A DNA stretch of 64,000 nt from an uncultured Thiotrichaceae bacterium. GTDB lineage: Bacteria > Pseudomonadota > Gammaproteobacteria > SZUA-229. A program made the position numbers and the translations under genes. The stretch spans positions 812 through 64,811 of the forward strand of contig CAZRKQ010000236.1 in the NCBI GenBank assembly GCA_964600755.1, in the 5' to 3' direction. The notes beneath the pieces were generated by a model. The model was not told the origin of the DNA. It did no database searches and saw nothing but the letters and a program-made list of their open reading frames with translations. Of the stretch, positions 23,804-40,432 are shown piece by piece (position 1 is the stretch's first letter; each line of letters begins with the position of its first letter).

Positions 23804-24389
23804 ATGTGGGATAAACGCTACGATACAACTGAATACATTTATGGTCCTGATCCGAACGAATTTCTGAATGAAGTTGTAAACCAGGTCCCTAAAGGCAGAA
23901 CCTTGTGTATAGCCGAAGGCGAGGGCCGCAACGCGGTGTTCCTTGCAGGGCATGGCCATGAAGTTGTTGCTGTTGATTCTTCTGCTATTGGACTGGAAAA
24001 AGCCAGGAAGCTGGCGAGTGAGCGTGGAGTTGAAATCGAAACGCTTGTTGAAGACCTGGCGAATTTTGATATTGAAGCCGATAGCTGGGATGCGATCGTA
24101 TCAATTTTTGCGCATGTTCCAGCGGATATTAGAAAACCGCTGCATCGGATTGTGTCCAGGGATTACGTTCAGGTGGTGTGCTCGTGCTCGAGGCCTATAC
24201 ACCTGAGCAAATCAAGCTGGGAACGGGGGGGCGCCTGTTGCCGAGTTGACCATGACACTGGATGCGTTGCGTGTAGAGCTGGATGGGCTGGAACTCAGGC
24301 ACGCGGTGGAACTGGAGCGTGATGTTATAGAAGGCCAGTTCCACACTGGCAAAGGTGTTGTGGTGCAGGTGCTTGCCGTTAAGCCCTGA
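23804..24389 (+). pseudogene. class I SAM methyltransferase (TehB-like) with two apparent single-base deletions
   Basis: MWDKRY...AEGEGRNAVFLA; the family-like continuations GLRSGGVLVLEAYTPEQ and ...EGQFHTGKGVVVQVLAVKP* are reached only by frameshifts at ~24158-24161 (AGGG) and ~24225-24232 (G7). Span 586 nt = 588 minus 2. Confidence 0.75.
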
Positions 24390-24401: not shown

Positions 24402-26474
24402 TCAGAAGTCCCAGCGGTAACCAAGGAGGAAAAATAAATTATTAGTACCAAGTGATTGTCCGTTCATTTCTTCGCTGGTGTCATCGTAGCCGACCTCAAA
24501 ATCAAAACGGACCTTGTTAAGATAACGGTAGTCAGTTCTGACTAATGCCCTGATCTTGTTCTGTGTACGACCGTCCGAGCTTTTGCGTATATCAAATTGC
24601 AGGCGGGGATTAATCCGCCAGTTTCTGGATACGGGAATTCTGGTGTTGGCAATCAGTGAGTAGGTGTCTGATAGTTTGGTATCCAGGTAACGAAAACCAA
24701 GTACGCCCGTATCTCTTTTCAATATCAGGTTGTTACCAACAATCTGTGTACTAAAAAAATAATCTGTGCCGGTGGAGGGTGTTGCGGGTACACCCCCCGA
24801 GGCTTCCGTTCCACCAACTTTTGAGAAAGTGATATCAGCATTAGCCTGAAACTTTTCACTTATAGGCTGTGAGCCACCAAATGTAATCGTCGCGCTATCG
24901 GCTGTACGATCACGCGCAAGTTGATAAATCTGCTCAATGTTCAGAGTTTCCATGAGCTCCTCTATAGAACTTTCTGGCCGGCCTATGAGTGCATTACTTG
25001 TTGCGAGTACAGGTGTTTTACGCAGGAATGCGTTCATATAGGCGGCACGACCTCTGTCGAAAAGGAGATTGGCATTCAGTTGCAGTATATTAACTTCCTT
25101 AAATGTCAGATCATAATCAATCATGCCGAACAGTGACTTGGTATTATCGTTGTAACGAACTTCTGTACCGGTACTGGTTCGATCATCTACTCCATCGATA
25201 TCCTGGTCGAAATAGAACAGGTTCATATCCCAATGTTCGAGAAACGTTCCTGTTTCAAAAATGAATCCATAGAAAGTTTTGTGTTTATTAATAGAAGTCT
25301 TGTTATCAATATCGACCGGATAGCCTGCAAGCGCATTCAGGCGCATTTCAGGAGTGAGCTGATAGCCGGCCGAGATTCCATCAAATCGGTTGAGGATACC
25401 GCCGATGCGTAATGCTTGCCTGCCTACTCGCCCTGACGTCCCGCTTTTTCTTGAGCTCAAGTCATAAAACATTTCGATAAATCTGAATGAGTTGCTTTCA
25501 TCATCGTCTAGAAAGTCATAGGTATCATCTGCAGAGAAACGAAAGTTCTGGTCGAAGCCGGACGTCTGGTACGTTGTATTGAGATCAAGAAACGTGATCA
25601 ACTGAGACAGGGTCCTGATTGACCCATCGGTGTCATCTGTTTCAGCTGTGTCGCTACGGTAAAACTGCGAAAAACTTCCATATGTTGTCATCCTTCCTTT
25701 TTCTCCATCTGCTTCCATGTTGATTTTATCTCTTGGGGCCTGAGTGGATGTTATCAGTCCCGAGAGGCGTTGCTTGACACGTATGGCGTCCTCACTTGTC
25801 GGGTATTTTTCAAGATAATCTTTATAAATAGCGGCAGCATGGGCATTCTGTCCCTTTCGTTGCCTTGATAGCCCCAGCAATTCAAATGCTTCCATCGAGT
25901 ATTTGTGATCGCCAGCGGTTATGATTGCCGTTAAATAACGAATAGCCTGCGAGTAGTCTTGCTTCTTGAAATCGGTTTTTGCGCGCTGCATCAGGCTGTC
26001 AAGTTGTTTGTCAGTTAACGTTGATTTGTTGCTTGCTATTGATTTCTTCTTTGCCGTGGTTGTTTTCACTGGTGCCGATATTTTTGAAACTGGTACGACC
26101 AATGCTTTGTTTGATGCTGCTTTGATTTCGCCTGTACTTGCTTGCCTCAGCCATGCACCAGGATAGATATTTTGTATATCATTCAACACCAGAACGGCTT
26201 TCTGGCGGCTGCTGAAGAAGCCCAGATTCAACCGTTCCCATGGCTTACCTTTAACTGTTGTTCGAGTGACATATACAGTACGACCTTCAAGCAGCTTGCT
26301 TTTTTTAGGCTGCCATTTCAGATCTGTGCCCGGTGCAGAAGCGAGCACGATAACGTATGGAGACGAATTGCTCGCAGCATGAACATCACTCAAAGCAATA
26401 AACTGTATGATGATCAATGCTATGAAAATTAAGCACGTTATAGATGGTTGGCGCAACATTTTAGGTGGCGTCAT
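24402..26474 (-). CDS. outer-membrane beta-barrel with N-terminal SPOR and TPR domains (porin of a porin-cytochrome conduit)
   Basis: Signal peptide; SPOR-like RLNLGFFSSRQKA...YPGAWL; TPR-like helices (YSQAIRYL, YKDYLEKYP); amphipathic beta-strands; C-terminal FFLLGYRWDF (Bam signature). Confidence 0.8.
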   Translation of the reverse strand: MTPPKMLRQPSITCLIFIALIIIQFIALSDVHAASNSSPYVIVLASAPGTDLKWQPKKSKLLEGRTVYVTRTTVKGKPWERLNLGFFSSRQKAVLVLNDIQNIYPGAWLRQASTGEIKAASNKALVVPVSKISAPVKTTTAKKKSIASNKSTLTDKQLDSLMQRAKTDFKKQDYSQAIRYLTAIITAGDHKYSMEAFELLGLSRQRKGQNAHAAAIYKDYLEKYPTSEDAIRVKQRLSGLITSTQAPRDKINMEADGEKGRMTTYGSFSQFYRSDTAETDDTDGSIRTLSQLITFLDLNTTYQTSGFDQNFRFSADDTYDFLDDDESNSFRFIEMFYDLSSRKSGTSGRVGRQALRIGGILNRFDGISAGYQLTPEMRLNALAGYPVDIDNKTSINKHKTFYGFIFETGTFLEHWDMNLFYFDQDIDGVDDRTSTGTEVRYNDNTKSLFGMIDYDLTFKEVNILQLNANLLFDRGRAAYMNAFLRKTPVLATSNALIGRPESSIEELMETLNIEQIYQLARDRTADSATITFGGSQPISEKFQANADITFSKVGGTEASGGVPATPSTGTDYFFSTQIVGNNLILKRDTGVLGFRYLDTKLSDTYSLIANTRIPVSRNWRINPRLQFDIRKSSDGRTQNKIRALVRTDYRYLNKVRFDFEVGYDDTSEEMNGQSLGTNNLFFLLGYRWDF

Positions 26475-26565: not shown

Positions 26566-27870
26566 CTACCATCCACTAGCGCTAGGGCGGTGTTCGTTCA
26601 TTTTGATCCCGTCTTTGAGGTGACAACTTCCACTGCAATCACGTAATTCGCTGACCGAGAGGGGCACATCGCCAGGACCCTTGTGCGAATCAGGTTTGTA
26701 ATCATCGGCGTGGCAACCTGCGCAATCCGGCTGGTATGCAGGGAAAGTCCAGGCAATAACCTGGTTATTGGTTCTATGGCAGTCAACACATAGTACGCCG
26801 GTTCTGTGATCGCCTGGGTAATCAGGTGAATCATGTCTGAACAGAATCAGAGGTATCCAACTCGCAGTACTGTGGCAGCGATCGCAATCCAGAGTTGTTA
26901 CAAAGTGCGTCGTTGATTTTCCTGTAGCAGTTGAACCATTATGACAGCTGAGGCAAAGACCTGTGACCGTTGAATGGTCAAAGCTGGCACCTAACCATGT
27001 ATTTGTTGTATGGCAGTTGTTGCATTCAGCTATAGTCGGTAAATGTGCCGGATGCTTGCCGGTGGCTGTGACGCCATTGTGACAGCTGCTGCACGGGCCA
27101 GTCACGCTAACATGGTCAAAGCCGGCGCCGAGCCATGTATTTGTATTATGGCAATTGTCACATTCAACCGTAGTCTGTAAATGTGCCGGATGCTTGCCAG
27201 TAGCTGCTACACCATTGTGACAACTGCTGCATGCGCCTGTCACGTTGCTGTGATCGAAGCGCGCTCCTCTCCAGGTGTTAGTATTATGGCAAGTGTCACA
27301 CTGGGCATTTGTAGCAATATGCCGGGGTGACATGCCGCTGGCCTGAACCCCGTTATGGCAGGAATTGCATGTGCCTAAAACGGAGCCATGGTCAACCCTG
27401 CCAACACGGCCAAAGGTAATTGTGTTGTGGCAGTCTTCGCATGTAGATGTAGTGGCTATATGAGATGGCGACAAGCCAACGGCAATTGAATTGTTGTGGC
27501 AGCTCTCACACGGCGCGAAGATACCACTATGATCGAATCTTGCGCCTATCCAGGTGTCAGTTGTGTGGCAATCATCGCAAATATTACTGCTGACAACATG
27601 CCCTGGATTTTTACCTGGTGCGCGGCTTCTGTTATGACACAAAGCGCATTCAAGCGGTGTGCCCTTGAAAATTCCGCCGATATGGCAGCTGGAACAGTCT
27701 AAAAACTGATGCTTGCCAGTTAAAGGGAATCCGGTTGTGAAATGGTCGAAGCTTTCCACGTTATCGGCAGCATGTATTGAAGTATTAAAAATTATGGATG
27801 AGACTGATAGCAGCATCAGCAAGAGAGCTGTTATGGAGAAACCGAGTAATCTTTTATTATTCTGACTCAT
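26566..27870 (-). CDS. exported multiheme c-type cytochrome, 15 CxxCH + 1 CxxxCH
   Basis: Motifs counted by hand from CSSCH to CAGCH, plus CSGSCH; Sec signal ending IHA, no lipobox; ~46-aa diheme repeats. Confidence 0.92.
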   Translation of the reverse strand: MSQNNKRLLGFSITALLLMLLSVSSIIFNTSIHAADNVESFDHFTTGFPLTGKHQFLDCSSCHIGGIFKGTPLECALCHNRSRAPGKNPGHVVSSNICDDCHTTDTWIGARFDHSGIFAPCESCHNNSIAVGLSPSHIATTSTCEDCHNTITFGRVGRVDHGSVLGTCNSCHNGVQASGMSPRHIATNAQCDTCHNTNTWRGARFDHSNVTGACSSCHNGVAATGKHPAHLQTTVECDNCHNTNTWLGAGFDHVSVTGPCSSCHNGVTATGKHPAHLPTIAECNNCHTTNTWLGASFDHSTVTGLCLSCHNGSTATGKSTTHFVTTLDCDRCHSTASWIPLILFRHDSPDYPGDHRTGVLCVDCHRTNNQVIAWTFPAYQPDCAGCHADDYKPDSHKGPGDVPLSVSELRDCSGSCHLKDGIKMNEHRPSASGW

Positions 27871-27884
27871 GGGGTGTGTACCGA

Positions 27885-29483
27885 TTATCGTTTGATTTTG
27901 GCGTCTTTAAAGCTTTCTGTGCTATGGCATTTCCCACACTGTCTGCCGAACTGCCTGTTATGGATATCCTGGCTGCGATGACAGAAAATACAGTCACTAG
28001 ATGCCTTCAATTTCCCTTTGGAATTTGTTTTATGGCAATCGTAACAACCCACTTCTTCGTGGGCGCCAACTATCTTGAAGCGTGTTTCCTTATCATGATC
28101 GAACAGCCAGTTCTCCCACGAATTTGGATTGTGACAAGTTTCGCAGTCAGTACCGAGGCGGGTTTTGTGTACATCATCTCCGGCGTGGCATGAATTGCAT
28201 TCTCTATCGGCCGAGCTGTAGACTGAAGTAAGGTGACATTCTTCGCACTGGATTGCGGCATGCATGCCAATCAGCGGGAAGCTGGACAGGTCGTGGTCGA
28301 AAAAGACATTATTACGCCAGCCTTTTTCATTATGGCAATTACTGCACTGCTTACCCTGTTTGCCCTGGTGAACATCATCTTGTTTATGGCATTCAACACA
28401 GGCTGATTTCAGCTCATCTTTTTCAAGATTACCCTTGTGGCAGAATGAGCAAGACAGTTCTTTGTGTTTTCCTAAAAGAGGAAAGTCAGTTTTTTTGTCG
28501 TGATCAAATTTATGCTTTTGCCATGATTTGGAGTTATGGCAGTCATTGCATTTCTTCCCGTTTTTGCCTTTATGGCTGTCATCGTGCTTATGACAGCCAT
28601 AACAGTCAGTTGGAAGTTTCTCTTTATTTTTCTTTTTCTTTTTTAAGCTTTCGGGTGTGTGGCAACTAGTGCACGAAGCTTTCTCATGCCGGCCGAGTAA
28701 GCGAAAATCCGTTTCCTTTCCGTGGTCGAAAGTGATTTCGTCCCAGCGTTTAGAGGTATGGCAGGTATCGCATTTTTCTCCGTAACCGCCCTGGTGGATG
28801 TCCTGGATCTTATGGCAGCCTATACATTTAGAAGGCGTGTCCTTGTATTTCTGGTTGATATGACAGGAAGAGCAGTTGGTGTCTTTATGTGCGCCTTTGA
28901 GCGGAAAATCCGTTTTCTTATCGTGATCAAATTCTGATTGTTTCCAGCTGGATGCCGAGTGGCAGTCGCCGCATTTTTTTCCGTGCTCGCCGTCATGAAC
29001 ATCAGATTCCTTGTGGCAACTGTAACAATCCTGCGCTGCCTCGGAGTACTTCTTCTCAGCCTGGTGGCAGCCGGTGCAGCTGGTTTTTGCGTGCATGCCC
29101 TTGAGTAAAAAATCGGTTGCGGAATGGTCGAATGTCGATGGGTTCAATAATATGATTTTTGCATCTCTGCCTTCATGTTCGGTGTGGCAGTGCTTACAAT
29201 TTGTTCTTACTGCTGCAGGCAGTCGCCCATGAAAACCTTTTTTACTGCGCACATCATCACGTATGTTTTTATGATCATGGCACTGCATGCACAGTTGTCC
29301 CTGCTTTGACTTGTCAGAGGTGTCATGGCACTGGCCGCAGTCCTTTTCGTATTTCTGGTGGGCCTTGACCACAGGGCCTGGCATCAACAGAGATTCCAGG
29401 GATTCTGCGTTGCTGGCAGGTATTATGAACATGGTCGAGATGGTGAGGATTAGCCTTATCCAGACTTGTATTTGGAATCGCAT
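27885..29483 (-). CDS. periplasmic multiheme c-type cytochrome, 21 CxxCH
   Basis: 21 motifs counted from CGQCH to CGKCH; signal peptide; six FDH..FxLxGxH triheme modules; Lys-rich. Confidence 0.93.
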   Translation of the reverse strand: MRFQIQVWIRLILTISTMFIIPASNAESLESLLMPGPVVKAHQKYEKDCGQCHDTSDKSKQGQLCMQCHDHKNIRDDVRSKKGFHGRLPAAVRTNCKHCHTEHEGRDAKIILLNPSTFDHSATDFLLKGMHAKTSCTGCHQAEKKYSEAAQDCYSCHKESDVHDGEHGKKCGDCHSASSWKQSEFDHDKKTDFPLKGAHKDTNCSSCHINQKYKDTPSKCIGCHKIQDIHQGGYGEKCDTCHTSKRWDEITFDHGKETDFRLLGRHEKASCTSCHTPESLKKKKKNKEKLPTDCYGCHKHDDSHKGKNGKKCNDCHNSKSWQKHKFDHDKKTDFPLLGKHKELSCSFCHKGNLEKDELKSACVECHKQDDVHQGKQGKQCSNCHNEKGWRNNVFFDHDLSSFPLIGMHAAIQCEECHLTSVYSSADRECNSCHAGDDVHKTRLGTDCETCHNPNSWENWLFDHDKETRFKIVGAHEEVGCYDCHKTNSKGKLKASSDCIFCHRSQDIHNRQFGRQCGKCHSTESFKDAKIKR

Positions 29484-29508: not shown

Positions 29509-30444
29509 TCAGTACATATGTACTGCAAAAATGTGAATGACAGCCGTGATTATCATCATGATGAATAGTGGCATGTGAAGAATATGCCACAGTGAAAACA
29601 GTCGCTCATAAATACGAAAAGCGACAATTTTTCGCAGTGCGGTAGTATAACGTTTGATAAACTCTTTAGCGACTGCACTGTCTGGTAGTGCTGTTGATGA
29701 ACCGTCATTCTGGCTGCTGTTCAGCAAACGCTTAAACTTCGACTGTAAACGTTGCGCATCAAAAGTTAGTGATATCAAATGCAGCAAGCTCATCGAGATG
29801 CCTGTATATTGCTGCAAAGCCTTGCTTTCCATTGCTGACATCATCTTGTTCAGATTTGCGTTCAGCTTGTAAATGTACAAAAGCTCCGTATTTTTGGTTT
29901 CAATCTCGTGCTTCAGTTCATTGAGCGTAATGCGTTTGCCATACAGGCCATGATGAATGTGTGTATATATATAACGACCTATCAGCCCACTGCCTGCGAC
30001 CAGTAACATGCAGATCAATGCGATTGAACTGTTGGTGGAGCCAAGGTGGAAATTGGAGTGGAACAGAACCATAACCGGTCCGATGATGCCAAATAGCATG
30101 TGAATACCAAACCAGTACCGAACCGGTATCATGCGGGTCAGTACTGACAACCTTTTGCTCAGTGGATAGAGCAGTAATAACAACATCAAGCTGCCACCAA
30201 CAATTCCCAATATATAGCCAGTTCCATTTTCGGCAGTCAGATAATTGTTATTACGATTGTTCCAGCCCAACAGAAGTACGGCTATCACACTGATGGAAAA
30301 AAGATGGGAGTACAGAAATAGCAACGGCGTGGTTAATATTTCAAATGTATTTTTCCCTCGCCGGGCCACATTATCTGCCGGCAATTGCTGGCTTGCACGG
30401 TTGCTGTTTATAGTATTTATGCTGCTCATGAAAGGTGTCGTCAA
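29509..30444 (-). CDS. inner-membrane ferric-reductase-like (diheme b) protein
   Basis: TM helices with two H-x13-H pairs (H115/H129 and H290/H304) separated by a ~120-aa soluble insertion. Confidence 0.7.
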   Translation of the reverse strand: MTTPFMSSINTINSNRASQQLPADNVARRGKNTFEILTTPLLFLYSHLFSISVIAVLLLGWNNRNNNYLTAENGTGYILGIVGGSLMLLLLLYPLSKRLSVLTRMIPVRYWFGIHMLFGIIGPVMVLFHSNFHLGSTNSSIALICMLLVAGSGLIGRYIYTHIHHGLYGKRITLNELKHEIETKNTELLYIYKLNANLNKMMSAMESKALQQYTGISMSLLHLISLTFDAQRLQSKFKRLLNSSQNDGSSTALPDSAVAKEFIKRYTTALRKIVAFRIYERLFSLWHILHMPLFIMMIITAVIHIFAVHMY

Positions 30445-30710
30445 CTCCCGTTATAAATTTGGTATAATAATCCCAAACGTATTATAATTGTTCGCTCAGT
30501 TGAGTCTAGTAAAACTGTAAAAATAGTTATAATAATGTCGTAATATTTTTCACCTATTGTCGGGATAATTTGCACTATATCTGCTATATACTCGTATAAT
30601 CAATAAGTTACGTCTATTTCATTTGTCCAATAAATACTCATACTATATATGATGATATTTTTTCTTGTGCCGCGTTCAGGCCCTGGAATTTGTTCCACAG
30701 GATTTACATC

Positions 30711-32009
30711 ATGACACCAGTTATGTGGCTTTACTCACTGCCGTTGTTGGCAATTTTCGGTATATATTTCTGGAAACGGTCAGGCAAACAACGCACCAGC
30801 AGGCACATTCTTGAGGAAGCGGTTGCTTCAGGGATGACGGAGCCGGCTTCTCTGCACCCGGTAGTTGATCACGTCCGTTGCCTGGGGTGTGCCAGCTGCG
30901 TTAAGGCATGCCCTGAAAAAAATGTTTTGGGGATTATTCACGGTAAAGCGAACCTGATTGATCCGACCCATTGTATCGGTCACGGGGCCTGCAAGAAGGC
31001 ATGTCCATTCAGTGCCATCGAGCTTGTGTTTGGAACCGAGAAGCGGGGATTAGATATTCCGCAGGTTAAAGAGGATTTTCAGACCAATGTTGCTGGTATT
31101 TATATTGCGGGCGAACTTGGAGGTATGGGGCTGATACGGAATGCCGTTATCCAGGGTGTACAGGCGGTTGATTCAATTCGCAAGCTTGATGGTATCGGCA
31201 GCAAGGACAGGCTTGATCTTGTTATCGTTGGCGCCGGGCCGGCTGGAATCGGAGCATCACTGGCGGCCATGTCGGCTAAACTCAAAGTTGTCACGCTGGA
31301 ACAGGAGTCACTTGGCGGAACTGTCTCACATTATCCCCGCGGGAAAATCGTGATGACAGCGCCGGTAAAGCTGCCCGTAATAGGCAAAATGCATTTCAGA
31401 GAAACCACCAAGGAAGCGTTAATAGAGTTCTGGGAGGGGGTAGTAGAATCAACCGGGCTGCGAATTAATGATAATGAACGCGTTGAAAGTATCGAGTCTG
31501 AAGCTGCCGGCTTCATTGTTAAAACCACGAAACAAAGCTACCAAACCAGGGCGGTATTACTGGCGATTGGTCGTCGTGGTACACCTCGTACGCTCGGTGT
31601 GCCGGGTGAAAATAAAACAAAGGTGGTCTACCGCCTGATAGATCCCGAACAGTATCTGAACCAGCATGTTCTGGTTGTCGGTGGAGGCGACAGTGCACTG
31701 GAGGCGGCAGTCAGTATTGCCAATGAGGCAGGAACAACAGTGACCATATCATACAGAAGCGAAGCATTCTCCCGTGCCAAGGAAAAGAACCGCATCAAGG
31801 TTGATACTGCGCAAAAGGAAGGCAGATTGAATGTATTAATGAGCTCGAATGTAAAACAGATTACCGATTACAAGGTTGTTATTGAGGCAGGCGACAAAGA
31901 AGTAAGCATCGATAATGATGCTGTTATTGTATGCGCCGGCGGGATTCTTCCAACTCCATTTCTCAAGTCCATTGGTATTGAAGTAGAAACAAAGTTTGGT
32001 ACAGCATGA
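30711..32009 (+). CDS. membrane-anchored ferredoxin-fused FAD/NAD(P)H oxidoreductase (TrxR/YpdA-like)
   Basis: N-terminal TM; CLGCASCVKACP and CIGHGACKKACP; VIVGAGPAG (FAD); VVGGGDSALEAA and YRSEAFSR (NADPH-type); no redox CxxC. Confidence 0.85.
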   Translation: MTPVMWLYSLPLLAIFGIYFWKRSGKQRTSRHILEEAVASGMTEPASLHPVVDHVRCLGCASCVKACPEKNVLGIIHGKANLIDPTHCIGHGACKKACPFSAIELVFGTEKRGLDIPQVKEDFQTNVAGIYIAGELGGMGLIRNAVIQGVQAVDSIRKLDGIGSKDRLDLVIVGAGPAGIGASLAAMSAKLKVVTLEQESLGGTVSHYPRGKIVMTAPVKLPVIGKMHFRETTKEALIEFWEGVVESTGLRINDNERVESIESEAAGFIVKTTKQSYQTRAVLLAIGRRGTPRTLGVPGENKTKVVYRLIDPEQYLNQHVLVVGGGDSALEAAVSIANEAGTTVTISYRSEAFSRAKEKNRIKVDTAQKEGRLNVLMSSNVKQITDYKVVIEAGDKEVSIDNDAVIVCAGGILPTPFLKSIGIEVETKFGTA

Positions 32010-33997
32010 TATACCGATTTTCTATATTGCCATTGTTGCTGTTGCTGGTAGCGCTTACGGCCGAAGCTGTGACACTATCAGATGCAAAAATGGCTATTCG
32101 CACCAGGGACTTTACCAAGGCTGTGAAGATACTTGACCCGTTATCGCGTAATGGCGACAAAGAGGCGCAATATCATCTTGCAGTGATGTACCGTAATGGC
32201 CAGGGCACTCGTGAAGATGCCGGCAAAGCAGCGTACTGGATGAATAAGTCAGCCAGCCAGGGATATAAGCGTGCACAGTACTCACTGGGTGTTCTTTATG
32301 AAGATGGTATTGGTGTAAATAAGGACCTGAAAAAAGCGGCTTACTGGTACAGGCAGGCTGCCAGCCAGGGCTATAGCAATGCTGCAAAGCGACTGACCAG
32401 GCTCGAAGCTGGCAGTGCTGGCGACCCGGCGATTGTCGGCAATATGAAACCCGGGAAAGCGCTGGTGTTGGCAGTGGCTGCTGGTGATATAGCGACAGCT
32501 AAAGAATCACTAAAAGCCGGTGCTGATGTGAATGCAACAGATGCTTACAAGCGAACAGTTTTGATGGAAGCCGTTGCAAGAAAAAATGTAGATATGGTGC
32601 GACTCCTGCTGGAGAATGGTGCTGATGCTAATGTTGTTGATGCCTACAAGGACAGGCCCTTGATGATAGCGTCATCTAATGGCGAAGCCGTGATTGTTCG
32701 TGAGTTGATCAGGTATAACGCCAGGCTGGATTACAAAGATGCAAATGGTAATACGGCCCTGATGCTGGCGGCAGCTAAAGGACATAAAAATACTGTTGCC
32801 GTATTGTTAAAAAGCCGGGCATCGCATAAGACCAGGAATCGTAATGGTGAGAATGCAATTGTACTGGCTGCAAAAGCAGAGCATAAATCGACTGTAAAGC
32901 TGTTGGAAAAATATGGGGCGCGTTTACCTGTCGCGCGTAAAGATGGTCTGACGGCAGCTCAGAAACTGGCGGCGATAAATACGGGTGTAGACAGCGTTTA
33001 TAAAAACTGGACTCCGTTGATGATTACCGTATGGCGAGGACAGGATGATGTTCTGGCGTTGTTGTTAAAAAAAGGGGCTGATCCCAATCAGGTGGATAAT
33101 GAGGGATATACACCACTAACACGCGCCGCTGTACAGGGCTATGAAACTGTTGCCGGTCTGCTTATTGATGCTGGTGCCAATGTGAACAGGAAAGATCGCA
33201 GTGGCAAGACGCCGCTCATGTGGGCGTCAGAGCATGGAAAAGACAAGGTTGTGAAAACACTGTTAACAGCCGGCGCCGATGTTAGCTTACTTGGTAAAAA
33301 ACAACAAAGCGCCCTGTACTTTGCAATTGCTGGTGGCAACGAAGCTGTGACGACTCTTCTGCTTGATGCGGGCGCAAGGCCGGAGAATATCCTGATAGAA
33401 GGTAAAAGTGATTTAATGATGGCGGCTAGTAGTATGTCATTAACAACTGTCAGTCATTTGTTGCGCTCAGGTGGTGATGCGAGCTTGCGTGATGAAAATG
33501 GTCATGACGCACTCTGGCATGCTACAGGCTCTGGTAATGCTGACCTGGTCAAGCTGTTGCTTGAGAATTACACGTATATAGACAGAAAGGATAAACGTGG
33601 CTTTTCATTGTTGCACAATGCCGCTACATCAGACAATCCTGATATTGTAACTCTGATTATTAATAAGGAGATGGATGTTGATGTTAGGGCAAGTGACGGA
33701 AATACGCCATTAATGATTGCTGCAAGTAGAGGTAATGCAGGTTCTGTCAGGGCGCTGATTGCAAAAGGTGCTGATGTTAACAGCAAGAATAATATTGGCA
33801 ACACCCCGCTGATTCTTTCAGTGTTGGCGGATAGCTCTGAATCCGTATCAATATTGTTAGATGCCGGCGCCAATATTGATGTGAGAAACAACAAGCGTGA
33901 ACAGGCTATAAACCTGGCTGAGTTGGGCGAGAAAACTTCTATTATCGAGTTATTGCGCAAGCATAAGAGCGAAAAGAAGCTGTTTGGTATTTTCTAG
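32006..33997 (+). CDS. exported SEL1-repeat + ankyrin-repeat protein
   Basis: Signal peptide; two full SEL1 repeats (AQYHLAVMYRNGQG, AQYSLGVLYEDGIG); about 15 ankyrin repeats (GxTPLMxA...LLxxGAdvN); ATGA overlap with the oxidoreductase. Confidence 0.88.
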   Translation: MIYRFSILPLLLLLVALTAEAVTLSDAKMAIRTRDFTKAVKILDPLSRNGDKEAQYHLAVMYRNGQGTREDAGKAAYWMNKSASQGYKRAQYSLGVLYEDGIGVNKDLKKAAYWYRQAASQGYSNAAKRLTRLEAGSAGDPAIVGNMKPGKALVLAVAAGDIATAKESLKAGADVNATDAYKRTVLMEAVARKNVDMVRLLLENGADANVVDAYKDRPLMIASSNGEAVIVRELIRYNARLDYKDANGNTALMLAAAKGHKNTVAVLLKSRASHKTRNRNGENAIVLAAKAEHKSTVKLLEKYGARLPVARKDGLTAAQKLAAINTGVDSVYKNWTPLMITVWRGQDDVLALLLKKGADPNQVDNEGYTPLTRAAVQGYETVAGLLIDAGANVNRKDRSGKTPLMWASEHGKDKVVKTLLTAGADVSLLGKKQQSALYFAIAGGNEAVTTLLLDAGARPENILIEGKSDLMMAASSMSLTTVSHLLRSGGDASLRDENGHDALWHATGSGNADLVKLLLENYTYIDRKDKRGFSLLHNAATSDNPDIVTLIINKEMDVDVRASDGNTPLMIAASRGNAGSVRALIAKGADVNSKNNIGNTPLILSVLADSSESVSILLDAGANIDVRNNKREQAINLAELGEKTSIIELLRKHKSEKKLFGIF

Positions 33998-34392: not shown

Positions 34393-34956
34393 CTAGAACA
34401 ATTCGGTTCTACCGATTGCCAGCGTTGATTGCTTAACCGGGTTTTCCTTTTCCAGTTCAGTGCGTAAATTTTCAACATCCTGTTTTATTTCCTGAACTCT
34501 TGATATAAAAGCTGGATCATTATTGTGGTCCAGGGTTTTCAATTCCTTCAGGGCGTCGGCCAGTTTTTTGAACGTGTCCTGAATACGTCTTGCTCTGTTC
34601 TGGGCATGTTTGGTCAATTGCTGCACAATATCGTCAAACTGCAGGGCAGTGACAATTCTGACGCGGTTGTCCCTGTGCTTGTTGTCTACTCTTTTACATT
34701 GCTCAAGTAGTGCTTCATTGTCCGTGGTGTTTAATTGTGAAGCCAAACTGATCATTGTGTTCTGCTCGATGGCCAATATATTTATTTCGTCAAAGCCCGC
34801 TGTTAGTGACCTGGTGGCATCACCAACCAGCTGTCTGACATGTTCAAGCTCCTGGTGGATATATTGATGCTCTCTAATCATTAAATTGACGAGGTCATCT
34901 GCCAGGTCTGACAGTATGGCGCTTAATTCTTCATTTGTTGTGCTTGAGTCATTCAT
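34393..34956 (-). CDS. chemotaxis-associated coiled-coil protein (CheZ-like DxxxQ motif)
   Basis: ALQFDDIVQQ and C-terminal NPVKQSTLAIGRTELF; last gene of the che operon. Confidence 0.55.
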   Translation of the reverse strand: MNDSSTTNEELSAILSDLADDLVNLMIREHQYIHQELEHVRQLVGDATRSLTAGFDEINILAIEQNTMISLASQLNTTDNEALLEQCKRVDNKHRDNRVRIVTALQFDDIVQQLTKHAQNRARRIQDTFKKLADALKELKTLDHNNDPAFISRVQEIKQDVENLRTELEKENPVKQSTLAIGRTELF

Positions 34957-34983
34957 GAGGTATTGAGTGATTGTCGGTCACGG

Positions 34984-36060
34984 TCATTTTTTCATAAGTG
35001 TAGTTACTTTGTCTGCTATTTTGTTTAACGGTAGAATAAAATCAGCAGCCTGTAATTTAACAGCTTCACCGGGCATACCCCAGACGATACTACTTTGCTC
35101 GTCCTGGGCAATCGTTATTGCGCCTGCGTCATGTATATCTTTTAATCCAAGTGCACCGTCTGAGCCCATGCCTGTTAGCAGGATTCCAATGGCGTTGCTG
35201 CCGGCAGACATGCAAACAGATCTGAATAATACATCAACAGATGGCTTGTGGCGGTTTACCGGCTCCCCGTCATTCAACTTGCAGTGGTATGAGCTGCTGT
35301 TTCCATCGCGAACGATTATAAGATGTCGGTCTCCTGGTGCAATGTAAACATGGCCGGGAAGAATCGCCTGGTTGTCTTTTGCTTCGCAAACATCAAGTGC
35401 CGAAATCTTGTTGATGCGTTCTGCAAATGCTCTGCTGAATGCGCTTGGTATATGCTGTACGACAATAACGCTATATGAGTCGGGTTGCAAACGGGTGATT
35501 ATTTCCTTAATGGCCTCCGTGCCGCCTGTAGAGGCACCAATCACAACAAGCGCCTGATGATTATTTGTCTTAAGTAAGGTTTTCGAAGAGGCCTCAACAG
35601 GGGGTGAAGCCCCGGCAACTGGAATTTTCATGGATGCGCCAGGCGCGCGGTTAATTGAAGCTGCCATCTTGATTTTGCTAATGATTTCCTCTGAGTAGTC
35701 GGCCAGGCTGGTCTCGCTAATCACATCGGGTTTTCCTACATAATCAACGGCGCCCAGTCCCAGGGCTTCTAATGCAACATCCGCACCTTTTTGCGTCAGC
35801 GATGATACCATCACAACGGGCATGGGCCTGAGCCGCATTAAGTTCTTCAGAAAACTGATGCCATTCATTTTGGGCATCTCGACATCCAGTGTCAGTACAT
35901 CAGGATTTAACTGTTTGATTTTCGTTCTGGCTATATATGGGTCCATTGCTGTGCCAACGACTTCGATATCATCGTCCGATGAAAGTATTTCACGCAGGAT
36001 TTTTCTGGTTAGCGCCGAGTCATCGACTATGAGTACGCGAATTGATTTTTTGGGCGTCAT
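34984..36060 (-). CDS. cheB: chemotaxis methylesterase/glutaminase
   Basis: REC domain (VDDS, LDVEMP) plus GASTGG, VQHIP, HKPSVDVLF, LTGMGSDGA. Confidence 0.96.
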   Translation of the reverse strand: MTPKKSIRVLIVDDSALTRKILREILSSDDDIEVVGTAMDPYIARTKIKQLNPDVLTLDVEMPKMNGISFLKNLMRLRPMPVVMVSSLTQKGADVALEALGLGAVDYVGKPDVISETSLADYSEEIISKIKMAASINRAPGASMKIPVAGASPPVEASSKTLLKTNNHQALVVIGASTGGTEAIKEIITRLQPDSYSVIVVQHIPSAFSRAFAERINKISALDVCEAKDNQAILPGHVYIAPGDRHLIIVRDGNSSSYHCKLNDGEPVNRHKPSVDVLFRSVCMSAGSNAIGILLTGMGSDGALGLKDIHDAGAITIAQDEQSSIVWGMPGEAVKLQAADFILPLNKIADKVTTLMKK

Positions 36061-36062
36061 CG

Positions 36063-36713
36063 TTAAAACAGGTCAATCTTGCCTTCGACAGGTGACTTAC
36101 TAATCGTCTCAATATAGGAGGATTCGCGTCTGGTTAGCGTGTCGTTGTGCAGGCTATTCAGGCTTTTGACTCTGACTCTGCCAGTATTGGGGAAGTATTG
36201 AATTTTTCTTGGTCGGTTGCCGCCAACATCTTCGGCGGCTATTTTAAATCCTTCTGTAACTAGATAACGTTTTACAAAATCAATATTTTTACCGCCAATA
36301 TCGGTATTGATCTGTAATACTTTGCCGCCACCGAACAGTTTGATCTCAAGATTTTCACGTTTTCCACCACCGGCCAGAATAACGTTAATCAATCGCTCCA
36401 TCGCGATATTTCCATAGCGCGTTTGCGAATTCACTGGTGTGTTGCCCCATGATTTTCCGTCGCGGCTTATGTCTATCGGAAGCATGAAATGATTCATGCC
36501 ACCAATTCCTGTTACAGTATCGCGAATACAGGCTGATACACATGAGCCTAGTACCGTAGTTATTAATTCTCCGTTCATAGACACGTAAAATTCACCCGGC
36601 AATAATTTTGCGGCATATATATTATTCGAGGCGTCCCAGTAGCGATTAATCGACTCGAATCCGGCGAGTGCCCTTGGTAGTTCCATACGAGGTTTTTCGT
36701 TTCGCGTGCTCAT
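36063..36713 (-). CDS. cheD: chemoreceptor glutamine deamidase
   Basis: LLPGEFY, TVLGSCVSAC, GGMNHFMLP, KLFGGG. Confidence 0.95.
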   Translation of the reverse strand: MSTRNEKPRMELPRALAGFESINRYWDASNNIYAAKLLPGEFYVSMNGELITTVLGSCVSACIRDTVTGIGGMNHFMLPIDISRDGKSWGNTPVNSQTRYGNIAMERLINVILAGGGKRENLEIKLFGGGKVLQINTDIGGKNIDFVKRYLVTEGFKIAAEDVGGNRPRKIQYFPNTGRVRVKSLNSLHNDTLTRRESSYIETISKSPVEGKIDLF

Positions 36714-37570
36714 TATGTAACCTTCTGGTGAATAGTAAGGCCTTTATTCTCAAACCTGTTGGTAACACCTATCAGGCTCTCTGCATGTCCTACGAAAAGT
36801 GTACCGTTTTCATCCAGGTGGTCAGCAAATTTGTTCAATAGCTTAATTTGTGTATCTCTTTTAAAGTAAATGGCAACGTTGCGAAAGAAAACGCAGTCGA
36901 ACGTGCCATGGACAGGCCAGGTCTCGGTCAGGTTGAGCTGCTTGAAATGCACCAGGTTTCGGATGCTTGTTTTGATTTTTACACTACCTTTTTTTGTCCC
37001 CGTCCCTATAAGCGTCCATCTTTTTTTACGCTCAATCGAGACTTCACTCACACGGTTAATCGGGTATTCACCTTTGTTCGCTATTTCAAGAACGTTTGAG
37101 TCGAGGTCGGTAGCAAGTATCTTTGCGTCCCACCTGTCAATGTCCTTGATATTTTCTCTCAATACCATTGCGATGGAATAGGGTTCTTCTCCTGTTGAGC
37201 ATCCTGCCGACCATATGCGTAAACGGGGGTACGCCGCACCCGTGTTCTTCCTGATAATGTCTGGTACTATCTTTTTTGCAAGATATTCAAAATGATGTTC
37301 TTCCCTGAAAAATGATGTCACATTTGTAGTGATCGAGTTTATAAAGTGTGTGAATTCTCCGGAATTATTTTGCCTTAGTAGATCGCAATATTCACTGAAG
37401 CTGTTGATGCCCAGCAGGCGTAGTCGCTTGGCAACGCGGCCATACACGAGTTCACGTTTATCTTCGGTCAGGTTAATACCGGCATTTTTACCTACCAGGT
37501 CGCTAAGGAAATAAAAATCCTCATTGGTAAATTGAAACTCCTTATCGAGATTATTGATCAATTCATTCAT
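36713..37570 (-). CDS. cheR: chemotaxis methyltransferase
   Basis: ITTNVTSFFREEHHF, RIWSAGCSTGEEPYSIAM, ATDLD, FRNVAIYF, VGHAESL. Confidence 0.96.
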   Translation of the reverse strand: MNELINNLDKEFQFTNEDFYFLSDLVGKNAGINLTEDKRELVYGRVAKRLRLLGINSFSEYCDLLRQNNSGEFTHFINSITTNVTSFFREEHHFEYLAKKIVPDIIRKNTGAAYPRLRIWSAGCSTGEEPYSIAMVLRENIKDIDRWDAKILATDLDSNVLEIANKGEYPINRVSEVSIERKKRWTLIGTGTKKGSVKIKTSIRNLVHFKQLNLTETWPVHGTFDCVFFRNVAIYFKRDTQIKLLNKFADHLDENGTLFVGHAESLIGVTNRFENKGLTIHQKVT

Positions 37571-37579
37571 GAGCTGTTG

Positions 37580-37987
37580 TCAGGCCATGCCCATGTGTTG
37601 GTTCAGGCCAAGTAAGGTTGCGCGAGATACGAATTCATCAGATGGTTTGATCCAGTTGACTGTGTGATTGTTAGCTCGAATTTTCATAACAAAAGCGAAT
37701 AACATTTGCAAAACAGCGGTGTCGATCATTTCTACCGCGGAAGCATCAATATTGATATCAGTGTTACCGGCTATTTGGCTAAAGTCCTGATACAGCGATT
37801 TGGCGTTATTAATGACAGCTATAGAGTCAAGCGTGAGTGTCTGTATCGAAGCGTGTTTACTGGCGTTTGTTCCTGTGGAAGCTCTTTTGACAACTTTCTT
37901 TTTCGGCGCAGCTTTTTTCTTGCTGACCCTTTTTTTTCTCACGGCCGGTGCTTTTTTATTCGCTACTGTTTTTTTTGTCGTGGACAC
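37580..37987 (-). CDS. STAS-domain protein with Lys/Ala-rich N-terminal tail
   Basis: IDASAVEMIDTAVLQML (STAS_2-like); first 36 aa very basic. Confidence 0.75.
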   Translation of the reverse strand: MSTTKKTVANKKAPAVRKKRVSKKKAAPKKKVVKRASTGTNASKHASIQTLTLDSIAVINNAKSLYQDFSQIAGNTDINIDASAVEMIDTAVLQMLFAFVMKIRANNHTVNWIKPSDEFVSRATLLGLNQHMGMA

Positions 37988-38020
37988 GGGTTATCTCCAG
38001 CAGGTGCTAAACATTTGCAG

Positions 38021-40018
38021 CTAACCTGTATTTAGTAAATTGCCAGGTTGATTATGTCGAGAGGCGAGGCCAAGAACATCAAGGATAAGTGCTACTGAGC
38101 CATCACCCAATACTGTCGCGCCGGCCAGTCCTGGCACAGACTTATAATTATTTTCAAGGCTCTTTATAACTACCTGTTGCTGGCCAATGACGTCATCAAC
38201 CAATATGCCGACGTGTTTTTCTCCTATGTCAAATACAACAAGTAGTTGAGGGTGGTCGCTGTCTATATCGGGTTCAATATTGAACAATTCATATAACCGG
38301 GTCACCGATATATATTCGTCACGGTATTTGTACAATTCTGCTTTGCCTGCGACTGTGTTTGCATTCTTGTCATTGAACATTACCGTTTCTTTGATTGAAT
38401 GAAGAGGTATTATGAAGATCTGGTTACCGACCCGTACGATCTGGCCATCGAGGATGGCAAGTGTTAATGGCAGCTTGATGGTAAATGTGCTGCCAACACC
38501 TTGTTCAGACCAGATATCGACCGTTCCACCCAGGTCCGAGATATTTCGTTTTACCACATCCATGCCGACACCACGTCCGGATATGTCAGTTACTTCAGCG
38601 GCTGTAGAAAAGCCGGGCAGGAAAATCAGGTTCTGTATCTGGTTGTCAGAGAGTTCTTCATCCTCAGCCACAAGATTATGTTCTATGGCGTTAGCCAGTA
38701 CTTTTTCCGGGTTAATGCCACTGCCGTCATCAGAGATTCTCAGCATGACATAACCGCCCTCGTGTGAGGCATTGATTCTGATCACGCCTTGTTCAGGTTT
38801 TCCCTGTAAAGTGCGTGTTTCTGGCGTCTCGATACCATGGTCAAGTGCATTTCTGACAAGATGAACAAGCGGATCGCCTATTTTCTCAAGCACTGTCTTG
38901 TCGAGTTCCGTGGTTTCACCTGAAAACTCGAGCGCGACCTGTTTTCCCTGCGTAATACTCAGGTCATGAACAATTCGTGGAATTCTTTGAAATGCATTGT
39001 CTACAGGAAGCATTCTTATGCTCATGGTTTGCTCCTGCAGGTCACGGGTGTTACGTTCGAGCTGTTCCAGGCAATCCAGTAATTTCTCAGATGGTCCCGA
39101 GCCAAGCTCATTACATACACGGTTGAGTATTGACTGCGTTATTACCAGCTCGCCAACCAGGTTAAGCATGTTGTCAATTTTGTCCGTGCTCACGCGGATC
39201 GAGCGCTGTTCAGTATCGGTTTTTCTGCGGCCAGGCTGGATGGAGTCGCTCCTGCGGTCTGTAGTTGTTCTTCGTTCTAATTCCCTGTTTATTTCCAGCC
39301 TGCAGTCGCCTTCAACCCATGCAAACACTTCTTCGATTTGTTCTCGTGTAATGTGTCCCTGTAACTGAATACGCCAGCCCAGGTAGCAGTTATGTACATC
39401 GAGATCATCAAATCCAGGTACATTATCTACTTCGGCCTTGATGGCAAACTCTCCAAGAGTCTGCAGTTCTCTTATTAATCGTAGAGGATCGTTGCCGGTG
39501 TAAAACAGTTTTTCATCTGGAAAGAAACCGATTCTCCATCTTTGCTCAGGATTGTCATCTGTCGTTTCAGCCTGTGTATCATCGGAATCAGGTTTTGAGT
39601 CGGCTGCTGTGCTTTCTGTCGCGGCTTGTGATGAAAATATTTCAAGCTGTGCTGAAACATTTTCTACTATCGTGGTATCGTGTGGCTTGCCTTCCTTGTC
39701 GCTGATGAGCATGTTGTTTAAAGAATCAACCGCAGAGAGTAATACGGAGATGAGTTCCTGTGTTATTTCAAGCTCATCATTACGCATTTTGTCCAGCACG
39801 GTTTCCATCTTGTGGGTGAAATCTGAAATTATACTGAAACCGAAAGTGCTGGCACTGCCCTTAATTGAATGAGCGGCGCGAAATATTGTGTTGATAATTT
39901 CCTTGTCTGCCGTCCCTGGAGACAGATTCAATAATTCTGACTCCATTGATTCTATTCCTTCGAATGATTCTTCGAAGAAAATATCGTGGAATTGCGACAG
40001 ATTAATATCTATTTCCAT
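38021..40018 (-). CDS. cheA: chemotaxis histidine kinase
   Basis: Hpt IFRAAHSIKG, LNLVGELVI, HLVRNALDHGIE, GFST...SGRGVGMDVV, C-terminal CheW domain. Confidence 0.97.
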   Translation of the reverse strand: MEIDINLSQFHDIFFEESFEGIESMESELLNLSPGTADKEIINTIFRAAHSIKGSASTFGFSIISDFTHKMETVLDKMRNDELEITQELISVLLSAVDSLNNMLISDKEGKPHDTTIVENVSAQLEIFSSQAATESTAADSKPDSDDTQAETTDDNPEQRWRIGFFPDEKLFYTGNDPLRLIRELQTLGEFAIKAEVDNVPGFDDLDVHNCYLGWRIQLQGHITREQIEEVFAWVEGDCRLEINRELERRTTTDRRSDSIQPGRRKTDTEQRSIRVSTDKIDNMLNLVGELVITQSILNRVCNELGSGPSEKLLDCLEQLERNTRDLQEQTMSIRMLPVDNAFQRIPRIVHDLSITQGKQVALEFSGETTELDKTVLEKIGDPLVHLVRNALDHGIETPETRTLQGKPEQGVIRINASHEGGYVMLRISDDGSGINPEKVLANAIEHNLVAEDEELSDNQIQNLIFLPGFSTAAEVTDISGRGVGMDVVKRNISDLGGTVDIWSEQGVGSTFTIKLPLTLAILDGQIVRVGNQIFIIPLHSIKETVMFNDKNANTVAGKAELYKYRDEYISVTRLYELFNIEPDIDSDHPQLLVVFDIGEKHVGILVDDVIGQQQVVIKSLENNYKSVPGLAGATVLGDGSVALILDVLGLASRHNQPGNLLNTG

Positions 40019-40072
40019 GGGTGCTGTGGATTCAACGGTGATCTATTGATGCCGGCATTGTAGCGGCTGTCG

Positions 40073-40432
40073 TTACAGAACCCGGTCTACAGTAGAAAGT
40101 AGATGGTCAGGGTCAAATGGCTTTTCAATCCAGCCCGTTGCGCCCGCCGCTTTGCCCTCCTGCTTTCTGGCTTCGCTGGTTTCCGTTGTCAGGATCAGGA
40201 TAGGAGTGAATTTTAATGAGTCGATCTCCCGCAGCTTTCCAGTCAGAATTATGCCATCCATGTTTGGCATGTTGACATCCGTGATTACCAGGTTGAATGC
40301 ATTGTCCCTTACTACATCAAGTGCCTGAACGCCATCTTCTGCCTCAACAACATCGTGTCCAGCTTCTTTGAGTGTAAACGAAACCATCTCACGCATAGAG
40401 ACAGAATCATCTACCAGTAATATATTTGCCAT
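40073..40432 (-). CDS. cheY: chemotaxis response regulator
   Basis: LVDDS, ITDVNMPNMDG, LTTE, WIEKPF. Confidence 0.92.
   Translation of the reverse strand: MANILLVDDSVSMREMVSFTLKEAGHDVVEAEDGVQALDVVRDNAFNLVITDVNMPNMDGIILTGKLREIDSLKFTPILILTTETSEARKQEGKAAGATGWIEKPFDPDHLLSTVDRVL

Follow-up and report, generated by a model that had tools for sequence, protein, structure and literature searches.

Gene organisation of the locus

We analysed a 64,000-nucleotide stretch of DNA from an uncultured Thiotrichaceae bacterium (GenBank assembly GCA_964600755.1, contig CAZRKQ010000236.1, positions 812 to 64,811), here called the window, in which a reverse-strand gene at 29509–30444 is identified, by its sequence and its cluster partners, as coding for the inner-membrane protein (IMP) of a PCC3-type trans-envelope multihaem conduit, a new member of this group from an uncultured gammaproteobacterium. 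PCC3 was described by He et al. (2017; Front Microbiol 8:1584; PMC5566968) as a porin, extracellular and periplasmic multihaem cytochromes (median 34 and 21 haems, respectively) and an IMP of ~300 residues with five transmembrane (TM) helices, an SGxxG motif on TM4 and the motif W-x3-H-x13-H on both TM3 and TM5; tubeworm endosymbionts were among the hosts. The window protein has the same features (306 residues, five TM helices, both histidine motifs, SGxxG and the cluster partners), and nothing essential separates it from published PCC3 IMPs such as Slit_0870 and Slit_1446 of Sideroxydans lithotrophicus ES-1, the latter of which has been detected in proteomes (PMC12016527). He et al. also drew the analogy with ferric reductases, and proposed two b haems and a possible quinone-active cytochrome b (PMC5566968); the four-histidine motif and the ferric-reductase analogy were thus already published in 2017 and are rediscovered here. 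What is new is the linkage of the IMP, across phyla, to a flavoprotein and in many cases an ankyrin-repeat protein, together with the cytoplasmic location of a large insertion in the IMP. The genes of the cluster are as follows:

24402–26474, reverse strand: outer-membrane protein, 690 residues, with a signal peptide; the PCC3 'porin' by its position in the cluster
26566–27870, reverse strand: second multihaem cytochrome, 434 residues, with 15 CxxCH motifs and one CxxxCH; counterpart of the PCC3 'extracellular' cytochrome
27885–29483, reverse strand: periplasmic cytochrome c, 532 residues, with 21 CxxCH motifs, c7-type triheme repeats and a Sec signal peptide
29509–30444, reverse strand: PCC3 IMP, assigned from the open reading frame, its translation, its homologues and its match to the published PCC3 IMP
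30690–32009, forward strand: flavoprotein, 439 residues, or 432 from a probable ATG start at 30711; Pfam Pyr_redox_3 (3e-44) and Fer4_10
32006–33997, forward strand: protein with Sel1 and ankyrin repeats and a Sec signal peptide, predicted to be periplasmic; overlaps the flavoprotein stop by 4 nt

The four reverse-strand genes run from the IMP through the 21-haem cytochrome and the second cytochrome to the outer-membrane gene at gaps of 25, 14 and 91 nt, while the flavoprotein and ankyrin genes diverge from the IMP gene, 260 nt away. The 21-haem protein matches Pfam Cytochrome_C7 (1.4e-26), and the outer-membrane protein, for which a barrel is predicted, combines an N-terminal TPR/SPOR-like region with a C-terminal ...GYRWDF whose last residue is aromatic. 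All six genes are syntenic in the complete chromosome of a Thiotrichales metagenome-assembled genome (MAG).

Gene neighbourhoods were compared across 81 loci from GTDB genomes, found with an IMP alignment (A1) and hosted by Thiotrichaceae, Ca. Thiodiazotropha, Sedimenticolaceae, Endoriftia, Woeseiaceae, Thiohalomonadales and two Thermodesulfobacteriota/'Deltaproteobacteria'. This sample is biased towards Gammaproteobacteria, which we offset by context look-ups on diverse representatives and on Bacteroidota. A homologue of the 21-haem cytochrome lies beside the IMP in 79 loci and one of the second cytochrome in 77; the ankyrin protein is co-conserved in 68, with misses mostly at contig ends. 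Scaffolding or assembly of the periplasmic cytochrome is our guess at the role of the ankyrin protein. The presence of the IMP family in Endoriftia agrees with the published report of PCC3 in tubeworm endosymbionts.

PCC3 is among the most widespread predicted trans-envelope electron conduits, with an IMP family of thousands of members in Pseudomonadota, Bacteroidota and Thermodesulfobacteriota, and genome surveys routinely score it as a putative iron oxidase. Later accounts, like the first, treat it as four genes of predicted function (PMC10734462, PMC12442390, PMC13386937). The PCC3 papers that we examined mention no FAD, pyridine-nucleotide or ankyrin genes, and in them the four genes are coupled to quinone, with neither the flanking flavoprotein/ankyrin pair nor the cytoplasmic insertion brought up. 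Our literature searches for a link between PCC3 and NAD(P)H or a flavoprotein found nothing, and nothing of relevance came from those that paired Thiodiazotropha or sulfur oxidisers with multihaem proteins or ankyrins.

A conserved four-histidine motif in the inner-membrane protein

Counted from its TTG start, the IMP open reading frame encodes 311 residues, and our residue numbers follow this count (Met numbering plus 5). The true start is probably the ATG at 30429, giving 306 residues, because homologues are 303–306 residues long and open with MSN at that position. An earlier note on this gene, made from the sequence alone, had singled out two H-x13-H pairs placed on TM helices, and the translation agrees with it exactly: H115 and H129 are carried by WFGIHMLFGIIGPVMVLFH, and H290 and H304 by LHMPLFIMMIITAVIH. 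Both pairs lie in hydrophobic segments of at least 19 residues, where AlphaFold2 predicts helices, and both extend to W-x3-H-x13-H. The relevant parts of the protein, all encoded on the reverse strand, are:

30049–30117: TM3, W111-x3-H115-x13-H129 (hydropathy, conservation, topology)
29962–30036: TM4, S152-G153-x-x-G156, then the juxtamembrane stretch R157-Y-x-Y160...H164-x-G-L-Y-G
29605–29961: all-helical insertion, residues ~162–280, between TM4 and TM5 (AlphaFold2, conservation)
29512–29604: TM5, W286-H287-x2-H290-x13-H304, with H309 at its periplasmic end

When the protein was shuffled 100,000 times, three or more H-x13-H spacings arose with P = 0.009 and two W-x3-H-x13-H motifs with P = 1e-5, which makes the motif modestly improbable by chance. 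A third H-x13-H in the native protein (H165/H179) shows no conservation.

The family to which the motif belongs is large, with 3892 homologues at E ≤ 1e-3 in a database clustered at 90% identity, falling into 2677 clusters at 50% identity, and more than 7331 matches when the search was seeded by a Bacteroidota IMP. We aligned the window protein with 150 representatives sharing at most 50% identity with one another and 32–63% with the window protein. Conservation of the four histidines had been named beforehand as a test of the motif, and H115, H129, H290 and H304 are kept in all 150 aligned representatives (H290 and H304 in 150 of the 151 sequences when the window protein is counted in); they are also all retained in a Bacteroidota homologue, from Emticicia, at 29% identity. 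We regard this conservation as decisive evidence that the motif is real. Essentially invariant as well are W111, F112, G119, G122/P123, N138, R157, Y160, W286 and P292, and in a second alignment of the family (A2, 127 members) the serine and both glycines of S152-G153-L-I-G156 on TM4 are invariant.

The arrangement of these residues on their helices is ordered too. By ideal-helix angles and conservation values, W111, F112, H115, G119, G122, P123 and H129 share one face of TM3, and the conserved residues of TM5 likewise cluster on one face with both of its histidines; conserved glycine, proline and serine–glycine residues of the IMP share helical faces with the histidines. A bound porphyrin needs small residues on the helix face.

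Three further histidines outside the four-His motif are conserved at 94–97%: H164 (142 of 151 sequences), H287 (144) and H309 (146). Of these, H164 and H287 border the membrane on its cytoplasmic side, and H309 is close to the C-terminus, in the periplasm; they may interact with haem propionates, build a third cofactor site or act as hand-off residues.

Membrane topology and the cytoplasmic insertion

Hydropathy gives five TM segments, at about residues 36–62, 73–97, 110–132, 137–161 and 281–311, and the same five TM-length helices appear in an AlphaFold2 model built on the 127-sequence alignment (predicted local distance difference test, pLDDT, 86.7; predicted TM-score, pTM, 0.79); a first model on 24 sequences (pLDDT 64) was discarded as poor. 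In and after the insertion the model has helices at 169–178, 181–189, 191–205, 211–241 and 251–305 (Met numbering), the last of which is continuous with TM5. The soluble helical insertion of ~120 residues that the earlier note had described is therefore present, but it does not by itself separate the two histidine-bearing helices, since TM4 also intervenes. It is found in all 150 representatives, at 84–144 residues (median 125).

Averaged over the 151 IMP sequences, charged residues are distributed as follows, as numbers of lysine plus arginine (K+R) and of aspartate plus glutamate (D+E):

N-terminal tail: K+R 3.0, D+E 2.1
Loop 1–2: K+R 1.2, D+E 2.5
Loop 2–3: K+R 3.4, D+E 0
Loop 3–4: K+R 0.2, D+E 0
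Insertion: K+R 21.5, D+E 12.3

By the positive-inside rule, this bias predicts an IMP with its N-terminus inside, its C-terminus outside and its insertion in the cytoplasm, not in the periplasm, a location that had been named in advance as one that would speak against the haem-relay proposal. With this topology, TM3 and TM5 would run parallel, both from cytoplasm to periplasm, with their His pairs at matching depths: H115 and H290 near the inner face, and H129 and H304 ~21 Å further out. Parallel helices with His pairs at matching depths are the classic geometry of two stacked bis-His haems.

Column conservation over the same sequences is uneven, with a mean of 0.35 in the insertion compared with 0.68–0.76 in TM2–TM5, and the short periplasmic loops are well conserved (0.49 and 0.74). 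Apart from the N-terminal tail and TM1, the insertion is the least conserved part of the protein. Sequences flanking it are more constant, namely R157-Y-x-Y...H164-x-G-L-Y-G after TM4 and Y-E-R-L-F-S-L-W-H before TM5.

In one IMP clade (P0211, P0130, P0135 and relatives) the N-terminus is greatly extended on the cytoplasmic side and gives TPR-type or SPOR matches, and at one locus (L087:1651–2892) a gene for a free-standing TPR protein separates the flavoprotein gene from that of the IMP. Such extensions and proteins suggest variable cytoplasmic scaffolding.

Relation to ferric reductases and other transmembrane cytochromes

The motif had first been labelled as of NOX/ferric-reductase type. 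As a family assignment this label is not supported, with no Ferric_reduct match at gathering score and no profile similarity to MsrQ. The window IMP itself has no match in Pfam or NCBIfam scans, in Pfam none even at E ≤ 10. A Pfam scan of the 127 members of alignment A2 gave matches that were all sub-threshold, to DUF4405 (40 members), DUF6713 (23), Ni_hydr_CYTB (16) and Ferric_reduct (4). The DUF4405 (PF14358) matches, the best at E = 0.0017 and all below the gathering threshold of 26.7 bits, cover the W-x3-H region of TM3 (the window IMP has none); the best Ferric_reduct (PF01794) match has E = 0.015, and the Ni_hydr_CYTB (PF01292) matches extend over the last helix only. DUF4405, Ni_hydr_CYTB and Ferric_reduct are, we presume, members of one Pfam clan. 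That these weak matches fall mainly on families of dihaem cytochrome b speaks for a remote place of the IMP among bis-His transmembrane cytochromes.

Aligned with hhalign, the IMP profile gave a probability of 0.1–0.3% against E. coli MsrQ, taken as a single sequence or as a shallow 14-sequence profile of homologues at least 82% identical, and of 0.1% against E. coli YodB. PDB searches with the IMP sequence and profile returned only chance matches to coiled-coil-like segments of the insertion, and a Foldseek search of the PDB with the IMP model found nothing at E ≤ 0.001. The top Foldseek matches were eukaryotic dihaem cytochromes b561 (E = 0.34, probability 0.44, not significant), and the TM domain of NOX5 (5O0T) ranked 38th (E = 6.1, TM-score 0.16–0.21), a helical bundle with a large insertion being a weak case for Foldseek. 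Matches to ABC exporters in the same search probably reflect long TM helices that reach into the cytoplasm, not homology.

Two other assignments were considered and rejected. A di-iron histidine-box enzyme of the desaturase or AlkB-like kind does not fit, H164 being the sole conserved histidine of the THIHH stretch. In bc1-type cytochrome b the histidine-bearing helices are the second and fourth and run from the periplasmic to the cytoplasmic side; those of the IMP, TM3 and TM5, run from cytoplasm to periplasm.

We conclude that the IMP is like a ferric-reductase domain in the placement of its histidines and in its topology, and is not demonstrably a member of that family. With the ferric-reductase proteins (PF01794: NOX/DUOX, FRE/FRO, STEAP and MsrQ, including MsrQ-Fre) it shares His pairs on TM3 and TM5, the H-x13-H spacing and a cytoplasmic N-terminus. 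The haem ligands of NOX2 are H101/H115 and H209/H222, and ferric-reductase domains bind two b-type haems, MsrQ one. A cytoplasmic NAD(P)H flavoenzyme is the likely donor for the IMP as well. The IMP differs in having five helices, ending 7 residues after H304, instead of a six-TM core, and an insertion of 120 residues in the equivalent of the NOX D-loop; its electrons would go to a multihaem cytochrome, where the ferric-reductase proteins use O2, Fe(III) or MsrP, and the dehydrogenase encoded in the window is of a non-homologous TrxR/YpdA type with two iron–sulfur (Fe-S) clusters, not of the FNR type. A sixth helix could come only from the membrane anchor of that flavoprotein.

Proteins of the DUF4405, PepSY-like (FoxB, PDB 7ABW) and FezC groups resemble the IMP in carrying four central, highly conserved histidines in a TM bundle. 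Haem b binding has been shown experimentally for a DUF4405 protein (PMC11334425) and for FezC; that of the IMP is predicted. DUF4405 proteins are described as having six TM helices and are tied to ApbE flavinylation systems, whereas the IMP is tied to multihaem cytochromes and an Fe-S flavoprotein. The Tmc, Hmc and Qmo complexes of sulfate reducers follow the same logic, with a membrane dihaem b protein linking a periplasmic multihaem cytochrome to a cytoplasmic Fe-S/flavin protein. Their cytochrome b, however, is of the NarI/HdrE family and differs in the pattern of its histidines and in topology; on the cytoplasmic side the partners resemble HdrD or HdrA, and an outer-membrane module is lacking.

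That the protein is no cytochrome, and that its conserved histidines are ligands of a non-haem metal or serve in transport or sensing, we regard as highly improbable. Such a reading could draw on the fact that haem in the IMP is predicted only, that no database family covers the protein and that the conservation of H164, H287 and H309 is unexplained; the spacing, depth and parallel orientation of the His pairs, their W-x3-H context and the small-residue helix faces point to haem instead, as do the multihaem cytochromes and the Fe-S flavoprotein with which the IMP is strictly associated, and its sub-threshold matches to dihaem families.

A membrane-anchored flavoprotein as probable partner

The divergent gene at 30690–32009 encodes, in order, an N-terminal signal-anchor TM helix, a ferredoxin domain of the 2x[4Fe-4S] type and a two-dinucleotide-binding domain for FAD and NAD(P)H. 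Its closest solved structures are NADPH-dependent YpdA/Bdr and ferredoxin-NADP reductases of the TrxR type. Both dinucleotide-binding motifs are present and CxxC is absent, so that the FAD would most plausibly exchange electrons with the protein's own Fe-S domain.

We compared the window protein with 73 proteobacterial homologues (n = 74). The first Fe-S motif is canonical throughout this set. The second reads C-x2-H-x2-C-x3-C-P in place of C-x2-C-x2-C-x3-C-P, with the histidine in 74 of 74 proteins and in the Emticicia homologue; in the window it lies at 30972–31007 on the forward strand (flavoprotein residues 95–106). If it is ligated by this histidine or of the 3Fe type, the cluster bound here could serve as the exit cluster and face the haem. 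In the Emticicia protein the first motif also lacks its second cysteine (CIGSGAC). All 74 proteins have the N-terminal hydrophobic helix, at 30711–30800 on the forward strand in the window, with a conserved WLYxLP motif and on average 0.2 lysine plus arginine residues before it and 5.3 after. By this charge bias the helix would be an N-out/C-in anchor that places the Fe-S, FAD and NAD(P)H domains in the cytoplasm.

The earlier note had proposed a flavoprotein as the partner of the IMP, and gene neighbourhood across phyla strongly supports it. The flavoprotein gene adjoins the IMP gene in 76 of the 81 loci, with misses again mostly at contig ends. It was also present in each of six further contigs sampled with sufficient flank, among them divergent metagenomic IMP representatives (35–42% identity), where it lies within ~4 kb in every case. 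Beyond the Proteobacteria, a tblastn search of plasmids located a 29%-identical IMP, annotated as a hypothetical protein, on pEMTOL02 of Emticicia oligotrophica, where the gene order is ccsA, IMP, NAD(P)-binding protein and two cytochrome c3 family proteins. The NAD(P)-binding protein shares 47% identity with the window flavoprotein over a stretch of 414 residues. Aquirufa and Saprospiraceae keep the order of IMP gene and flavoprotein gene seen in Emticicia; the gap between the two is 1–2 nt there and 1–4 nt over all three. In Sideroxydans ES-1, Slit_0866 (PMC12016527 supplement), on which the PCC3 papers that we examined do not comment, is a candidate homologue of the window flavoprotein.

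The Bacteroidota loci also bear on whether the IMP and flavoprotein might act outside the electron path, as a maturation or maintenance factor that delivers reducing power or handles haem for cytochrome assembly. There the IMP directly follows a fused ccsBA-type gene for cytochrome c biogenesis, and at some other loci CcmH/CycH-like TPR proteins adjoin the module. CcsBA and CcmF, which are haem-handling proteins, also have conserved TM histidines, and their haem sites would be the analogy for such a role. We nevertheless judge it very unlikely: parallel H-x13-H helices at matching depths fit two fixed, stacked haems and not a haem channel, the IMP has no WWD domain, the gammaproteobacterial clusters lack biogenesis genes, and the cytochrome operon begins with the IMP gene at every locus.

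Proposed electron path and direction

From these observations we favour, with moderate confidence, a model in which the PCC3 IMP acts as a relay of two b haems that would take electrons from the NAD(P)H flavoprotein and pass them outwards to the 21-haem cytochrome, bypassing the quinone pool. A transmembrane two-haem relay was already part of the earlier note, and it is supported indirectly by the invariant histidines on conserved helix faces, the parallel helices and the adjacent 21-haem cytochrome. The IMP would hold two stacked b haems, an inner one between H115 and H290 near the cytoplasmic face and an outer one between H129 and H304 near the periplasmic face. The membrane-anchored flavoprotein would be the cytoplasmic donor, moving electrons from NAD(P)H through FAD and its two Fe-S clusters to the inner and then the outer haem b, whence they would enter the 21-haem periplasmic wire and go on to the barrel in the outer membrane and the outer cytochrome with its 16 haems.

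The most likely direction would be outward, from NAD(P)H to an extracellular acceptor. Inward movement of electrons works against the inside-negative membrane potential, and reduction of NAD(P)+ from donors at the level of Fe(II) is redox-uphill; both steps being uphill inward, a haem relay with a flavoprotein partner should run outward. Transcript data point the same way, both PCC3 clusters of Sideroxydans ES-1 being down-regulated on Fe(II) (PMC8788666).

How the two proteins would meet is less clear-cut. The insertion, the hallmark of the IMP family, may help to hold the flavoprotein, as was initially proposed, and we consider a docking role for it possible but doubtful: its conservation is low, and the flavoprotein's own TM anchor offers another route to docking. 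The juxtamembrane motifs and the flavoprotein TM helix would be at least as likely a site of contact, and together with loop 2–3 of the IMP they are better candidates when contact or electron entry is sought.

Several points weigh against the favoured model. Mean conservation is 0.35 in the insertion and 0.75–0.80 in the flavoprotein, which argues against a specific docking surface on the insertion. Neighbourhood is evidence of functional linkage, not of direct contact, and the second PCC3 cluster of Sideroxydans ES-1 (Slit_1446–1449) has no adjacent flavoprotein gene. No fusion of IMP and flavoprotein was seen among the top-ranked homologues, comprising long homologues and the top 120 from Bacteroidota; ten of the long ones were scanned, of which three had N-terminal TPR-type or SPOR matches, seven had no Pfam match and none had flavoprotein domains. 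The haem of IMP family members rests on prediction, and neither PDB search nor Foldseek nor hhalign gave the IMP a significant match, in sequence or structure, to a dihaem protein that has been solved. Finally, PCC3 is enriched in iron oxidisers, and the published model couples the IMP to quinones, with inward flow from Fe(II) (PMC5566968).

This last model is the principal alternative. As proposed by He et al. (PMC5566968), the IMP would be a quinone-coupled cytochrome b that exchanges electrons with the ubiquinone or menaquinone pool, much as CymA, CbcL or the cytochrome b of hydrogenases and bc1 do. PCC3 would then either bring electrons in from Fe(II) or minerals or take them out from quinol, and the neighbouring flavoprotein would be an accessory or have an unrelated redox role. 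The frequent occurrence of PCC3 in Gallionellaceae that oxidise Fe(II), and in Leptothrix, would suit this model, and so would the ES-1 cluster that lacks an adjacent flavoprotein and the sub-threshold matches of 16 of the 127 members to the quinone-reactive Ni_hydr_CYTB. However, no quinone site was identified in the IMP, the near-universal linkage to the flavoprotein across phyla, at 1–4 nt in Bacteroidota, is hard to explain for an accessory, and PCC3 was down-regulated on Fe(II) in ES-1 (PMC8788666). We therefore rate a quinone-coupled IMP as unlikely, while noting that it is viable and not mutually exclusive with the flavoprotein model.

The flavoprotein model can be taken a step further. 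The IMP, with five TM helices and an end outside, and the flavoprotein anchor, with one TM helix and a start outside, together make six TM helices and a cytoplasmic dehydrogenase, as in NOX/FRE; the combined topology resembles a NOX/FRE protein split in its last outer loop, and the Bacteroidota gene order, IMP then flavoprotein, fits. We tentatively suggest, as a reading that may well prove wrong, that PCC3 could be a self-contained, quinone-independent 'split NOX' that spans both membranes and carries electrons from NAD(P)H to an extracellular acceptor, and not a quinone-linked iron oxidase. Electrons would then enter the six-helix core through a port made up of the cytoplasmic insertion and the His-ligated Fe-S cluster, and leave it for the periplasm-spanning 21-haem wire and an outer cytochrome with between 16 and 68 haems. 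Were this so, sulfur-oxidising symbionts, Thiotrichales, iron oxidisers and freshwater Bacteroidota would have in minerals, O2 or partner cells a direct outlet for the reducing power of their cytoplasm.

Under the favoured flavoprotein model as such, the constant pairing suggests that cytoplasmic NAD(P)H, and not the quinones, feeds the conduit, and the partner offers a concrete, testable answer to the question of the electron source. It would imply that NAD(P)H drives electrons outward, contrary to how PCC3 is usually annotated, and if this is true, PCC3 genes in metagenomes of iron oxidisers, symbionts and sediments need another interpretation. The linkage and the cytoplasmic insertion together make the inner-membrane end of PCC3 accessible to experiment.

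Variation in the module and neighbouring genes

The second cytochrome varies widely in size, with 16 haem motifs in the window (26566–27870) and in the Thiotrichales MAG, 33–34 in a groundwater gammaproteobacterium and 61–68 CxxCH motifs in ~1500–1650 residues in Ca. Thiodiazotropha symbionts of lucinids (compared at L059:10436–15370, L060:10401–15353 and L032:10451–14944). At some loci a TPR or CcmH/CycH-like protein replaces or accompanies the ankyrin protein. A pair of DUF6502 and DUF5666 genes stands beside the module at two loci (L085:2576–4833 and L092:4841–7077), between the flavoprotein and the IMP in L092 and just beyond the ankyrin-like gene in L085.

Past the outer-membrane gene of the window, at 23804–24386 on the forward strand, lies a gene for a TehB-like S-adenosylmethionine-dependent methyltransferase with two frameshifts (near 24148–24154 and 24219–24231); tblastn with the intact Thiotrichales orthologue matched it in frames 1, 3 and 2, and it is either a pseudogene or the product of sequencing errors. 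Just beyond the ankyrin gene, at 34393–43516, are chemotaxis genes for CheB, CheD, CheR, CheA–CheW and a methyl-accepting chemotaxis protein, with a gene for an unassigned 187-residue protein. This cluster is probably unrelated to the PCC3 module, because it is not syntenic in the Thiotrichales MAG.

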